NCBI RefSeq assembly: GCF_003790525.1
Contig: NZ_CP033635.1
Length of the DNA stretch: 64,000 nt
Direction: 5' to 3' (one strand)
Source: Escherichia coli
GTDB lineage: Bacteria; Pseudomonadota; Gammaproteobacteria; Enterobacterales; Enterobacteriaceae
The position numbers were made by a program, and so were the translations under genes. The notes beneath the pieces are model-generated. The model was not told where the DNA came from. It worked only from the letters and a program-made list of their open reading frames with translations, and did no database searches. Below are positions 5,277-63,828 of the stretch, piece by piece (the stretch's first letter is position 1; every line of letters starts with the position of its first letter).

Positions 5277-7280
5277 TCAGGCACCTTTCACTCCCAGCAC
5301 CTTATGCGCTTTTGCCACAATATTCTCGGCGGTAAAGCCAAAGAACGGGAACAGCTTATCCGCCGGAGCAGATTCCCCGTAACCCGTCATCCCGACAATT
5401 GCCCCTTTCAGACCAACATACTTGTACCAGTAATCGGCGATGCCTGCTTCCACCGCTACGCGAGCCGCAACGTTAGAAGGCAACACCGACTCCCGATATT
5501 CCTCATCCTGGGCGTCGAAAATATCGGTCGAGGGCAGGGAAACTACGCGTACATTGCGACCTTCTCCCGCTAATTTCTCTGCCGCTTGCAGGGTGATTTC
5601 CATCTCTGAACCGGTGGCAATCAAAATAATATCTGGCTTACCGCCGCTGTCTTTCAACACATAACCACCACGAGCAATCTCTTTAACCTGATCCGGCGTA
5701 CGTTCCACCTGGGCCAGATTCTGCCTGGAGAGGATCAGTGCCGTCGGTCCGTTGTGGCGCTCAACCGCCAGCTTCCAGCCCACCGCTGCTTCCACCTGAT
5801 CGCACGGTCGCCAGGTGCTGAAATTTGGCGTTAAGCGCAGACTGGCCAGTTGCTCAACAGCCTGGTGCGTAGGACCATCTTCGCCCAGGCCAATTGAGTC
5901 GTGGGTATAAACCATAATCTGCCGCGCTTTCATCAGTGCCGCCATCCGCGCGGCGTTACGGGCGTATTCAACAAACATCAGGAACGTCGCGGTATACGGC
6001 ACAAAGCCGCCGTGGTGCGCAATGCCGTTGGCGATAGCGGTCATGCCAAATTCACGCACCCCGTAGTGAATGTAGTTGCCCGCCGGATCTTCCTTCAGCG
6101 AAACAGAACCTTTCCAGATGGTCAGGTTGCTGGGAGCCAGATCCGCCGAACCGCCGAGCAGCTCCGGTAGCATAGGCCCGTAAGCGTTAAGCGTATTTTG
6201 CGAAGCCTTACGGGTAGCGATTTTCGCCGGATTCGCCTGCAACTCATTGATATATTTCTGAGTCGTTTTCTCCCAGTCCTTCGGTAAACCACCGCTCATC
6301 CGACGGGTAAACTCTTCTGCCAGTTGCGGATGAGCCTTTTTATAGGCGGCAAACTTCTCATTCCAGCTCTGCTGCGCTTTTTCGCCTTTTTCGCGGGCAT
6401 CCCAGGCGTGATAAATCTCTTTAGGGATCTCAAATGGCGGATGGTGCCAGCCCAGTTTTTGCCGTGCCAGCGCCACTTCTTCTTCCCCCAGTGGTGCGCC
6501 GTGCGCCTCTTCCTTACCTGCTTTATTCGGCGAACCAAAGCCAATCACCGTACGGCAGATAATCAGCGACGGCTTATCTTTCACGCTTTGCGCTTCAAGG
6601 ATCGCTTCCTTCACCGCCTGCGGATCGTGGCCGTCGATCTCGTGGATCACATGCCAGTGATAGGCTTCAAAACGTTTTGCTGTATCGTCGGTAAACCAGC
6701 CTTCGGTTTCACCGTCGATGGAAATACCGTTGTGATCGTAAAAACCAATCAGCTTGCCCAGTCCCAGCGTGCCCGCCAGCGAACAGACTTCGTGGGAAAT
6801 ACCTTCCATCAGGCAGCCGTCGCCCATAAACACATAGGTGAAGTGATCGACAATTTCATGATCTGGCTGGTTAAACTGCGCCGCCAGCGTACGCTCTGCT
6901 ATCGCCAGCCCGACGGCGTTCGCCAAACCTTGTCCAAGTGGACCGGTGGTGGTTTCAACACCAGGCGTATAGCCGATTTCCGGGTGACCAGGGGTTTTCG
7001 AATGCAACTGACGAAAGTTCTTCAGTTCTTCCAGCGGCAGGTCGTAACCGGTCAGATGCAGCAAACTGTAGAGCAGCATCGACGCGTGACCGTTGGAAAG
7101 AATAAAGCGGTCGCGATCATACCAGGTTGGGTCGGTAGGATTATGTTTAAGAAAATCGTTCCACAGCACTTCGGCAATATCAGCCATGCCCATCGGCGCG
7201 CCGGGATGACCAGAATTGGCTTTTTGTACCGCATCCATACTGAGTGCGCGAATCGCATTGGCAAGGTCTTTTCGGGACAT
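5277..7280 (-). CDS. tktB: Transketolase 2
   Basis: ORF trimmed to ATG at 7278-7280 ([27 protein letters not shown]); immediately downstream of talA. Confidence 0.92.
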
Positions 7281-60848: not shown

Positions 60849-60880
60849 CGGCAGGAGAAATACCCCTGCCGTTTTTTATT
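60849..60880 (+). terminator. gltX rho-independent terminator
   Basis: Stem cggcagg / cctgccg followed by ttttttattt. Confidence 0.75.
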
Positions 60881-60949
60881 TATCCGGTGCGCCGTAAAAC
60901 CCCGTCCTTCAGGGCGGGGATATAAGGCGCGGTTTTCCACCTGACCAGG

Positions 60950-61363
60950 TGTTTGCTGTTGTTCAATGTATTGGCGGATGACGGATATTGGCGCACCTCC
61001 GCAGCTACTGGCAAAATAGCCAGGACTCCACAAAACGCCTTTGTAGTAATACCTGACTGCAATATCTGGTCGATCTCGTCGCAGTCACCTACCCGATACG
61101 CCTTTGAGGCTGTTTACCAGACTGGATATCGCCAGTTTGGGAGGATAGTTAATTAACAAATGGACGTGATCTGGTTCGCCATCCATTTCAACCAGTTCAG
61201 CTTCAAAATCAGCACATACATTTGAAAAGTAAGTGCGTAGTTTTTCTGTCGCGTCATGGTCAAAAATCTGGCGTCGGTATTTGGGACAAAGACCAGGTGA
61301 ACATGCATCAGGAAAACACAATGCCTTCCACGCCGGATATCGGTTTCTTTTTTCACAGACCAA
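60950..61363 (-). pseudogene. tnpA: IS200/IS605 tnpA (HuH Y1 transposase), frameshifted
   Basis: N-terminal part in frame of 61085-61363 (…CPKYRRQIF…HVHLLINYPP…LKGVSGR*); C-terminal part (LWSPGYFASSCGGAPISVIRQYIEQQ) in a different frame at about 60950-61033. Confidence 0.65.
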
Positions 61364-61378
61364 AATATAATTTGACCT

Positions 61379-62589
61379 GTGAAACGACTACAGGCATTTA
61401 AATTCCAGTTAAGACCCGGTGGTCAACAGGAGCATGAAATGAGGCGCTTCGCAGGCGCATGTCGTTTCGTTTTCAATCGTGCTCTGGCGCTTCAGAATGA
61501 GAATCATGAGGCCGGTAATAAATACATCCCTTACGGGAAAATGGCTTCCTGGCTGGTTGAGTGGAAAAACGCCACTGGAACGCAATGGCTTAAAGATTCT
61601 CCCTCACAGCCATTGCAACAGTCACTGAAAGACCTTGAGCGGGCTTACAAAAACTTCTTCCAGAAGCGGGCTGCTTTTCCCCGATTCAAAAAGCGGGGAC
61701 AGAATGATGCATTCCGCTACCCGCAGGGCGTTAAGCTCGATCAGGAAAACAGCCGTATTTTTCTGCCGAAACTGGGCTGGATGCGCTACCGGAACAGCCG
61801 TCAGGTCACGGGTGTTGTGAAAAATGTCACGGTCAGCCAGTCCTGCGGTAAGTGGTACATCAGTATTCAGACAGAAAGTGAAGTATCAACTCCGGTTCAC
61901 CCTTCAGCATCAATGGTCGGGCTGGATGCCGGCATGGCTGAACTTGCCACGCTGTCAGATGGGGCACAGTCTTTGAGCCTGTAAACAGTTTTCAGAAAAA
62001 CCAGAAGACGCTGGCGAGACTTCAGCGACAGTTAAGCCGCAAGGTCAAATTCAGCAATAACTGGAAGAAGCAGAAACGCAAAATACAGCGACTGCATTCC
62101 CGTATCGCAAATATCCGCAGGGACTACCTTCACAAAGTCACAACGACCGTCAGCAAAAACCACGCAATGATAGTCATTGAGGATTTGAAGGTCAGCAACA
62201 TGTCAAAGTCAGCAGCGGGTACGGTCAGCCAGCCGGGGCGCAATGTCCGGGCAAAATCAGGTTTAAACCGTTCGATACTGAATCAGGGCTGGTATGAAAT
62301 GCGCCGCCAGCTTGAGTACAAGCAGCTCTGGCGTGGCGGTCAGGTGCTTGCTGTTCCGCCAGCGTACACAAGCCAGCGTTGCGCGTGCTGTGGTCATACA
62401 GCGAAAGAAAATCGCCTGTCACAAAGTAAATTCAGATTCCAGGTATGTGGATATACAGCGAACGCCGATGTAAACGGCGCTCGTAACATTTTAGCGGCGG
62501 GGCACGCCGTTCTTGCCTGTGGAGAGATGGTGCAGTCAGGCCGCCCGTTGAAGCAGGAACCCACCGAAATGATTCAGGCGACAGCCTGA
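61379..62589 (+). pseudogene. tnpB: IS605-family tnpB (RuvC-like RNA-guided nuclease homologue), single frameshift
   Basis: Frame 1: 61379-61984 (…VGLDAGMAELATLSDGAQSLSL*); continues in -1 frame from 61981 to 62589 (VNSFQKNQKTLARLQRQL…IEDLKV…CACCGHT…[10 protein letters not shown]); shift at agc-ctg-taa, consistent with a 1-bp deletion. Confidence 0.7.
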
Positions 62590-62628
62590 ACGTAGCAGGG
62601 ATCCTCGTCCTTCAGGGCGTGGAGGATG

Positions 62629-63021
62629 TCAAGCTGATTCATCTATGTCGAGACGAGCAAGGAAATTACGAATTCCTTCGCGTGACAAAAATTGCGCAAC
62701 TTTTTCCCGCTCACTGTGAGTCATGTTGTCTATTGCGCTGATGATTTGCCGATAAGCAGGAGTGCGAATCCCCGGTGCGTATTCGGCAAGGGGTTCTTCG
62801 GCTTCCAGAAGCATCGGCGTGTTATGGAAGGCTGGCGTGTTCTGAATAAACTCGCAAACTTGCGTATCGACCAGAATAAGTCTGGCACGACCGCCTTTCA
62901 CGCCGGGAAATTTTTCCGTTTTCCAGCCTTTTTCTCTGATCCAACGGTTAACAGTTTGTTTAGCCACACCGAGGCATTCAGCCAGTTCTTCGGTGGTCAT
63001 TTTATTGCGTAATCTTTTCAT
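62629..63021 (-). CDS. yfeD: Small putative DNA-binding protein (DUF1323-like)
   Basis: 130-aa ORF (MKRLRNKMTTEELAECLGVAKQTVNRWIREKGW); paralogous to adjacent yfeC. Confidence 0.8.
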   Translation of the reverse strand: MKRLRNKMTTEELAECLGVAKQTVNRWIREKGWKTEKFPGVKGGRARLILVDTQVCEFIQNTPAFHNTPMLLEAEEPLAEYAPGIRTPAYRQIISAIDNMTHSEREKVAQFLSREGIRNFLARLDIDESA

Positions 63022-63022
63022 A

Positions 63023-63382
63023 TTATTTGCTATCGCGAATCCCTAAGCGTTGTAATAATCCGATAATCCCTTCCCGCAGAAGCAAGGATGTAAACTGTTT
63101 TTGTTCAACTGGCGTCATCTCTTTCGCCAGTGTCACCAGCAACACTTCAAGCGGCGCATCACCAGACAGGGCAGGCGTTTCTCCCTGACTTTCCGGACGT
63201 TCAGCATTGCGAATATATTCACGAACCTGTTCATTGACGTGAACCAGTCGGGCTTTGCCACCCTGGACGCCTGGTTTTGGTGACGTTGTCCAGCCTTCCT
63301 TGCGTACCCATTTATTAATGGTCTGGCGGCTATAGCCGGTCAGTCTGGCAAGTTCATCTGGCGTCATCCTCTCCTTGAACAT
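63023..63382 (-). CDS. yfeC: Small putative DNA-binding protein (DUF1323-like)
   Basis: 119-aa ORF (MFKERMTPDELARLTGYSRQTINKWVRKEGW). Confidence 0.8.
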   Translation of the reverse strand: MFKERMTPDELARLTGYSRQTINKWVRKEGWTTSPKPGVQGGKARLVHVNEQVREYIRNAERPESQGETPALSGDAPLEVLLVTLAKEMTPVEQKQFTSLLLREGIIGLLQRLGIRDSK

Positions 63383-63541
63383 AACAATTCCCTGAATGTA
63401 TGTGGGTCTATTAGTAGTTCATTTTATAACACCACTTTACAGGAAACCGTGACATGAATAACTACTGAATGCGAGCGGTTTTCCAAAATTGTTCATTTGC
63501 CTGATTTTTCAGCGATTGAAACTACACGTTGCAATTTGCCG

Positions 63542-63570
63542 TTGACACATTCGGGCGGAATTCATATGAT
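63542..63570 (+). promoter_or_regulatory. Sigma70 promoter of the tRNA-Ala operon
   Basis: TTGACA (63542-63547), 17-nt spacer, TATGAT (63565-63570), GC-rich discriminator; about 30 nt upstream of the tRNA. Confidence 0.65.
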
Positions 63571-63602: not shown

Positions 63603-63678
<76 letters not shown>

Positions 63679-63717: not shown

Positions 63718-63793
<76 letters not shown>

Positions 63794-63802
63794 AATTTCA
63801 AA

Positions 63803-63828
63803 CCCTCGCTGTAAAGCGGGGGTTTTTT
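63803..63828 (+). terminator. Rho-independent terminator of the tRNA-Ala operon
   Basis: Stem ccctcgc / gcggggg (one G-U pair) followed by tttttt. Confidence 0.7.

Follow-up and report, generated by a model that had tools for sequence, protein, structure and literature searches.

The yfeC-yfeD locus of Escherichia coli: a tandem pair of small paralogous regulators in the core genome of the Enterobacteriaceae, with likeness to the repressor of phage Mu

In Escherichia coli, the genes yfeC and yfeD lie side by side, flanked in the strain considered here by two tRNA-Ala(GGC) genes on one side and by the remnant of an insertion sequence (IS) of the IS200/IS605 family on the other. The DNA analysed, referred to below as the window, is a stretch of 64,000 nucleotides (nt) from contig NZ_CP033635.1 (assembly GCF_003790525.1), and its positions 62629-63382 are, according to the listing of open reading frames (ORFs), exactly two minus-strand ORFs, with yfeC (119 amino acids, aa) upstream, yfeD (130 aa) downstream and a single base between the yfeC stop codon (TAA) and the yfeD ATG. 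An earlier note, made from the letters alone, had described two adjacent, co-oriented ORFs of 130 and 119 aa in this setting; the ORF listing confirms that description, and both the peptide blocks quoted there and the placement between tRNA genes and an IS are correct. As set out below, yfeC-yfeD is very probably an operon of two paralogous small transcription factors of the PF07037 family, vertically inherited within the core genome of the Enterobacteriaceae. Coordinates of the genes and of the neighbouring features are collected in Table 1.

Table 1. Features at and around the yfeC-yfeD pair, in window coordinates
Feature	Position	Strand	Basis and remarks
yfeC coding sequence	63023..63382	-	ORF, 119 aa from the upstream ATG, start MFKERMTPDELARLTGYSRQTINKWVRKEGWTT
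yfeD coding sequence	62629..63021	-	ORF, 130 aa, start MKRLRNKMTTEELAECLGVAKQTVNRWIREKGWKTEKFPGVKGGRARL; paralog of yfeC
Probable yfeC promoter, extended -10 TGtTATAAA	63423..63431	-	49 nt before the ATG
Upstream element TGCGAG-N4-CTCGCA	63470..63485		yfeC/alaW intergenic region
alaW-alaX promoter	63542-63570	+	Promoter scan, 11/12 positions matched
alaW and alaX, two tRNA-Ala(GGC) genes	63603-63678, 63718-63793	+	ARAGORN; divergent from yfeC
Decayed IS609-like element (IS200/IS605 family)	60884..62632		1,749 bp; tnpA pseudogene, frameshifted tnpB
Hairpin and T-run	60849..60877		Comparison of the window with K-12 and ST131

A segment of 3.3 kb containing the pair is 100 % identical to the same region of E. 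coli strain 165 (NZ_CP020509), in which RefSeq names the two ORFs yfeC and yfeD, and is ~98 % identical to O157:H7 genomes. The two are the same genes as those for YfeC (b2398) and YfeD (b2399) of K-12, with protein identities of 98 and 93 %, respectively, and gene order, strand relationship and flanks are alike in both strains. What sets this strain apart from K-12 is the IS609-like remnant at the yfeD stop codon, which leaves the end of the YfeD protein unaltered, and a yfeD 3' half of the non-K-12 allele, which has 82 % nucleotide identity to that of K-12. RefSeq gives the yfeC product of K-12 MG1655 as 'DNA-binding transcriptional dual regulator YfeC', and the Prokaryotic Genome Annotation Pipeline (PGAP) names yfeD a MerR family transcriptional regulator. 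Both are, in short, catalogued, annotated and partly characterized regulator genes that were already known, and the finding as first put matters little: the genes have names, a Pfam family and regulator annotations, and genome-wide binding data and RNA-seq data have been published for both (Gao 2021). The additions made here are modest, and comprise a two-module homology to the phage Mu repressor c, which is the one fresh point, the rejection of a toxin-antitoxin (TA) label, the exact junction of the IS, and a dimorphism of the yfeD 3' half.

YfeC and YfeD align over their full length in BLASTP (35 % identity and 54 % positives over 128 columns, E=3e-26), so that the tandem paralogy read from the letters in the earlier note is far beyond chance. 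The same note had the C-terminal halves of the two proteins diverging, which is right for the linker, to which divergence between the paralogs is confined (roughly residues 60-88), and wrong for the last ~30 residues, where the pattern M..E...L..LL.REGI.G.L.RLGI is common to both paralogs and across genera, with M89, E93, L101, R103, G105, R112 and L113 invariant in the family alignment. In an AlphaFold2 (AF2) model of YfeC, with a mean predicted local distance difference test (pLDDT) score of 77, the N-terminal part consists of a strand at residues 5-6, helices at 8-15 and 19-29, strands at 33-35 and 45-48, and a helix at 51-59; a disordered segment (~60-77) follows and then two helices, 78-87 and 91-112. 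YfeD shows the same order of elements in a fused model (YfeC-(GGGGS)x6-YfeD, built on a species-paired alignment of 44 pairs), in which its last helix is H251-272 of 279 residues. Each chain ends 7 residues past its last predicted helix, that helix being 91-112 of 119 residues in YfeC and 102-123 of 130 in YfeD. Both proteins are therefore predicted to carry an N-terminal winged helix-turn-helix (HTH) of the order strand-helix-helix-hairpin-helix, within the excisionase/MerR/Mu-type superfamily, and the HTH that had been suspected from the letters is upheld by a predicted DNA-binding fold in each. A sequence-profile search of the PDB gave the MuA I-alpha domain (1tns) as its best match; Foldseek against the PDB returned no significant match, and phmmer with YfeD against the PDB sequences returned zero matches. 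In the proposed mechanism, DNA would be contacted through a QT[IV]N[KR]W recognition helix and a GV[QK]GG[KR]AR wing, a variable, disordered linker would separate the HTH from the C-terminal module, and that conserved two-helix module probably mediates oligomerization.

Membership of Pfam PF07037 (YfeC-like, formerly DUF1323; gathering score 22.9 bits) is clear for both proteins, with YfeC scoring 174.1 bits (1.7e-51, residues 6-118) and YfeD 202.9 bits (1.9e-60, residues 8-129), each over positions 1-122 of the 122-position profile. With the published DNA binding described below, these matches also bear out the 'regulator pair' of the earlier note. Other family models fit less well. HTH_17, with a cut-off of 27 bits, takes in YfeD (31.4 bits) and leaves YfeC below (20.9 bits), and on the excisionase model TIGR01764 YfeD (27.7 bits) and YfeC (18.7 bits) both fall under the cut-off of 28.8, so that the proteins would appear to share the domain type of the excisionases while the functional class is not supported. 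The MerR_1 model (PF13411) gave only 12-13 bits against a threshold of 21.6, and searches of YfeC and YfeD detected neither a MerR C-terminal effector-binding region nor any further Pfam domain. On PF02316 (HTH_Tnp_Mu_1, gathering score 23.3) YfeC reached 15.2 bits (E=0.027) over profile positions 4-45 only, and YfeD was not among the best 25 matches listed. The PADLOC matches to YfeC and YfeD were confined to weak, HTH-only hits on mad1 (23-24 bits) and were dismissed as generic. Compared with the small excisionase/MerR-like winged-HTH proteins, i.e. phage Xis, BldC, RacA, pSK1 Par and the N-domains of terminase small subunits, YfeC and YfeD lack an effector-binding domain and an integrase, partition or packaging partner, and add a C-terminal two-helix module of their own. 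The family is small: a profile search, run exhaustively over 1.84 billion cluster representatives, recovered only 267 proteins at E<=0.001, many of them fragments, the distant named members being from Cedecea, Cronobacter, Franconibacter, Scandinavium, Jejubacter and Chimaeribacter. Some YfeC orthologs bear the UniRef label 'HTH Mu-type domain-containing protein'. The same search also matched proteins of 300-1300 aa in which the YfeC-type N-terminal HTH occurs 5-14 times in tandem (among them P0287, P0289, P0290, P0298 and P0318), and which look like multi-HTH repeat proteins.

The distribution of the pair was followed in a scan of one genome per species, which yielded 279 confirmed loci; the locus counts given here and below refer to the best 80 of these, whose genera are Escherichia, Citrobacter, Salmonella, Leclercia, Kosakonia, Enterobacter, Lelliottia, Klebsiella, Raoultella, Kluyvera, Atlantibacter, Yokenella, Pluralibacter, Phytobacter and others. 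Every one of the 80 has kept the tandem pair, the second family member following tightly behind yfeC at distances from ~3 nt after its stop to a 20-nt overlap. The tRNA-Ala genes upstream, and gltX with the tRNA-Val/Lys cluster downstream, are found in nearly all loci (~70/80 with gltX and tRNA-Ala), Kosakonia-like loci being without an adjacent gltX. Along the chromosome of IS-free E. coli (K-12, ST131), xapR is followed by the valU-lysV tRNA genes, gltX, yfeD-yfeC (on the opposite strand), alaW-alaX and pdeA; apart from the IS, the window has the order of K-12, with its tandem pair in the orthologous position between tRNA-Ala(GGC) and gltX. Within E. coli, all but one of the 5426 complete genomes (5425) carry the yfeCD segment, the median copy number being one.

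This constancy bears on the 'mobile-element-derived module' suggested in the earlier note, taken here as a module recently acquired with an IS, an island or a prophage. Such an origin would account for the position of the pair beside an IS200/IS605-family remnant and beside tRNA genes, which are common integration sites, and for the weak matches of the N-terminal HTH to excisionase, terminase small subunit, transposase and phage DNA-binding families. It is nonetheless very improbable. The pair is conserved across the Enterobacteriaceae together with its flanks, which offer no space for an integrase gene beside it; a tblastn search with YfeD through 50,697 phage records yielded nothing; and of plasmids only 13 records were matched, most and the best of them being megabase-scale and looking like mislabelled chromosomes. 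The IS itself is found at this site in only 501 of the 5426 complete E. coli genomes (9 %), and the junction between the gltX terminator and yfeD is unbroken where it is missing. The family is therefore narrow, chromosomal and vertically inherited, comparison with other genera shows a fixed core-genome context without mobile-element association, and the label 'mobile-element-derived' survives only as a deep-time kinship to the Mu repressor, taken up below, and not on account of what neighbours the locus. The vertically inherited gene pair, then, is the older resident, and the IS is a later, unrelated and incidental arrival.

The manner of that arrival can be read from the junctions. Relative to an IS-free ST131 genome, the IS609-like element is placed between the gltX terminator and yfeD, with junctions ...TTTTTTATTTAT/IS/GCTGATTC..., having inserted after TTTAT inside the last Ala codon of yfeD (junction 62629-62634). 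The right end of the IS contributes the third base of this codon, a synonymous change, and a TGA stop that replaces the native TAA, and the YfeD protein is therefore unchanged. In IS-free strains, gltX and yfeD converge on a hairpin and T-run that looks like a terminator shared by the two genes, the yfeD stop codon overlapping the T-run. In the window, the IS has shifted this structure 1.75 kb away from yfeD, and yfeCD transcripts may therefore run into the IS, antisense to tnpB.

In a neighbour-joining tree, the proteins encoded at position 1 and position 2 of the pair separate, apart from Atlantibacter-type loci and Entomohabitans, which dates the duplication as ancient and older than most of the family. 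The ratio of nonsynonymous to synonymous substitution rates (dN/dS) is 0.10 for yfeC and yfeD alike. YfeD evolves much faster than YfeC, with ~50 % identity to its Enterobacter counterpart as compared with ~75 % for YfeC. In the exceptional loci (Atlantibacter-type L061, L067, L069 and L078, and Entomohabitans L083), the second gene, at ~5367-5750, groups with the YfeC clade and its product has ~50 % identity to E. coli YfeC and 35-37 % to YfeD, which suggests gene conversion or an independent duplication; one of these loci, L078, is labelled Citrobacter freundii and looks like Atlantibacter. Enterobacter sp. BIGb0383 (L052:5001-6138) has three tandem members, namely yfeC and two YfeD-like genes of 131 and 128 aa, the third being a further local duplication.

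Published work supports a regulatory role. With Myc-tagged YfeC, chromatin immunoprecipitation with exonuclease digestion (ChIP-exo) located 50 sites (Gao 2021, PMC8464067), with a motif of TTC-rich inverted repeats at 6-nt spacing (PMC8464067), and a yfeC knockout changed 205 genes, 16 of 20 direct targets being repressed by YfeC (PMC8464067). YfeD likewise binds chromosomal DNA, at no fewer than the 36 ChIP-exo sites listed, i.e. at least 36 (PMC8464067). In the yfeC knockout, yfeD was up 20-fold (PMC8464067), and ybaQ, which is among the listed ChIP targets of YfeD, was down 36-fold (PMC8464067), a fall that would fit repression of ybaQ by YfeD. On these data each protein would occupy dozens of chromosomal sites, YfeC acting mostly as a repressor. 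As for phenotypes, a yfeC mutant releases more extracellular DNA (cited in PMC8464067), a yfeC mutant of E. coli K1 colonizes the small intestine of neonatal rats poorly, and deletion of yfeC in enterohaemorrhagic E. coli leaves expression of the locus of enterocyte effacement unaffected.

The same data weigh upon an older label. RASTA-Bacteria in 2007 listed yfeD/yfeC as a new high-confidence TA pair of E. coli (PMC2374986), a listing echoed later, under which the operon would be a type II TA module with one protein as the DNA-binding antitoxin and the other as the toxin; two small genes in tight coupling, one of which encodes an HTH, do resemble a TA operon. A distinct toxin is lacking, since YfeC and YfeD are paralogs over their full length and are predicted to share one DNA-binding fold, and no toxin or TA model was matched in Pfam, NCBIfam or PADLOC, where only weak N-terminal HTH matches turned up. 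Unlike patchy, mobile TA loci, the pair is single-copy, with fixed synteny and vertical inheritance over dozens of genera. Strains deleted for yfeC are viable and show normal growth despite the 20-fold rise of yfeD (PMC8464067, PMC5847654), and in the natural isolate BHD6 (L002:2891-4316) yfeC is split by IS903B while yfeD is intact. A TA module is therefore extremely improbable, and the long-repeated label is unfounded.

Among the closest known likenesses of the paralogous regulators outside the family is repressor c of phage Mu (MuR, PF02316/phrog_7148), the resemblance running collinearly through two modules. The first of these is the winged HTH, with its W...GVxGGKA wing; the wing motif GV[QK]GG[KR]A that follows the W in YfeC and YfeD is a Mu-type signature. 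The second is a helical segment of Mu c at ~100-133 (LINMIEELEPDEARKALKLLSKGGLLALM), corresponding to YfeC 78-110, the aligned C-terminal module of the family reading LVTLAKEMTPVEQKQFTSLLLREGIIGLL. In hhalign, the family matched Mu repressor c with 91.8 % probability over 111 columns, and an alignment of Mu-c-like repressors with 96.9 % (E=1.3e-10) over 107 columns, placing YfeC 5-110 on Mu c 16-133. In the reverse direction, Mu c scored 23.1 bits on PF07037 against the cut-off of 22.9, at positions 24-113. YfeC residues 20-111 match phrog_7148, the Mu c family (E=0.002), and YfeD residues 90-127 match phrog_3037 (E=0.0014), a repressor family that Mu c also matches. All this lies beneath the reach of tblastn. 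The alignment stops at Mu c 133-134, and the C-terminal ~60 residues of Mu c (~134-196) are missing from YfeC and YfeD, which end 9-10 residues after that point. The setting differs too: the gene for Mu c is terminal in a Mu-like prophage and is transcribed divergently from ner and the transposase genes, whereas YfeC and YfeD are tandemly duplicated, lie outside any prophage between tRNA-Ala/pdeA and gltX, and have no neighbouring ner or transposase gene. From these comparisons we infer a common ancestry of YfeC and YfeD with the N-terminal two-thirds of Mu-type repressors; the likeness would fit transfer in either direction, from phage to host or from host to phage. The family is a narrow, fast-evolving invention of the Enterobacteriaceae that resembles the phage Mu repressor in its whole architecture and not in the HTH alone.

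A bolder reading would make YfeC and YfeD a domesticated Mu-like repressor that lost its tail, was duplicated at the base of the Enterobacteriaceae, and possibly retains a fossil 'c/ner' circuit with SfsB/Nlp, the chromosomal Ner homolog, which is 64 % identical to Mu Ner. What speaks for it is that the strongest YfeD ChIP-exo peak among those listed, which is also a YfeC peak, falls, once its coordinates are converted, at ~+22 to +51 of sfsB (K-12, L085:2410-2461). Against such a circuit, sfsB is not among the genes changed in the yfeC knockout, and an unrelated tagged factor, YciT, has a peak ~70 bp from this one, immediately before sfsB, so that the site may be a ChIP hot spot. We regard this reading as speculative and quite improbable. 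If true, the Mu link would be an instance in which the immunity repressor of a phage became a regulator of its host, and would give a reason to test control of the Ner-like gene sfsB.

Several observations weigh against the picture of two working regulators with a shared, Mu-like, oligomerizing C-terminal module. The C-terminal segment taken alone matched Mu c with only 59 % probability (E=9e-5, 29 columns), the register being kept. Among the YfeC targets are many genes of very high expression (rpmH, rpmB, rpsU, rplU and lpp), and genes of this kind readily give rise to artefacts in ChIP. The peak named after yfeC falls on the 3' end and terminator of the tRNA gene alaX (window ~63772-63805, after conversion of the published coordinates with a 1,977-bp offset from NC_000913.2 to.3, verified with the rpmH peak), ~390 bp away from where yfeC begins and outside the yfeC promoter. 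Autoregulation of yfeC is for that reason unproven and is not claimed here. Polarity of the deletion cassette may account for the 20-fold increase in yfeD. The published YfeC 'homodimer' rests on a poor SWISS-MODEL template (2qww, global model quality estimate 0.34) (PMC8464067). Finally, the fused AF2 model has a predicted template modelling score of 0.27, with C-terminal pLDDT below that of the monomer, and lends no support to a heterodimer, although this is a weak test, the tool giving no contact or predicted aligned error output. As an aside, an 8-mer, CCGCTGAC, is common to the alaX and sfsB peaks, with a chance probability of ~0.02 and from two sites only.

The poor fused model bears equally on the question of whether the two paralogs work chiefly as a single heteromeric regulator, held together by the C-terminal module that they share, and not as two independent ones with regulons of their own. 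An obligate partnership would suit the tight tandem coupling that is invariant in the 80 loci, the C-terminal motif LL.REGI.G.L.RLGI common to both paralogs, and the shared sfsB peak, which has the same coordinates in both data sets with a signal/noise of 57.6 for YfeD and 28.6 for YfeC. As far as the published site lists go, however, they otherwise barely overlap (50 YfeC sites as compared with at least 36 for YfeD) (PMC8464067), and the faster evolution of YfeD, together with the dimorphism of its C-terminal half within E. coli, is awkward for an obligate interface. A mainly heteromeric regulator is on balance unlikely.

The probable operon structure draws on the region around the yfeC start. 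YfeC begins at an upstream ATG in the PGAP annotation (119 aa) and at an internal ATG in the K-12 annotation (114 aa). The upstream start appears better supported, because M-[FIL]-K-E-R is kept in the orthologs, because the Arg codon therein varies synonymously (AGG/CGG/CGA), and because a conserved AGGA/AGGG Shine-Dalgarno sequence stands 6-8 nt before that ATG. Further upstream, TGnTATAA occurs 46-50 nt before the yfeC start in 79 of the 80 loci, and the corresponding extended -10 of the window, TGtTATAAA, probably acts as the yfeC promoter; a simple sigma-70 scan needing both hexamers did not call it. From this conserved promoter yfeC and yfeD would be co-transcribed, and both co-transcription and translational coupling are likely, the latter being proposed because one base separates the genes.

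Beyond the promoter, at a fixed ~100-104 nt before the yfeC ATG, lies the element TGCGAG-N4-CTCGCA. Its CTCGCA half is present in 68 of the 80 loci, and in 25 of the 80 the 6-bp inverted repeat is perfect, Escherichia having only the right half, CTCGCA, intact. Across loci the spacer varies and the arms do not, which suggests a putative protein-binding site rather than an RNA structure.

Within E. coli, yfeD is a mosaic gene. The window, K-12 and ST131 do not differ in its 5' half (100 % identity), and its 3' half (62633-62850) exists as two deeply divergent alleles, one carried by the window and ST131 and the other by K-12, whose split exceeds the divergence of E. coli from E. albertii in the 5' half. 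The break is sharp and lies near codon 57-60, at the boundary of the HTH and the linker. Over the whole gene, synonymous divergence (dS) between the alleles is 0.43 with a dN/dS of 0.10, and all 9 amino-acid changes fall at residues 71-104. The K-12-type 3' half is ~97 % identical to that of cryptic Escherichia clades, and the two types occur at ~43 % (window type) and ~57 % (K-12 type) of genomes.

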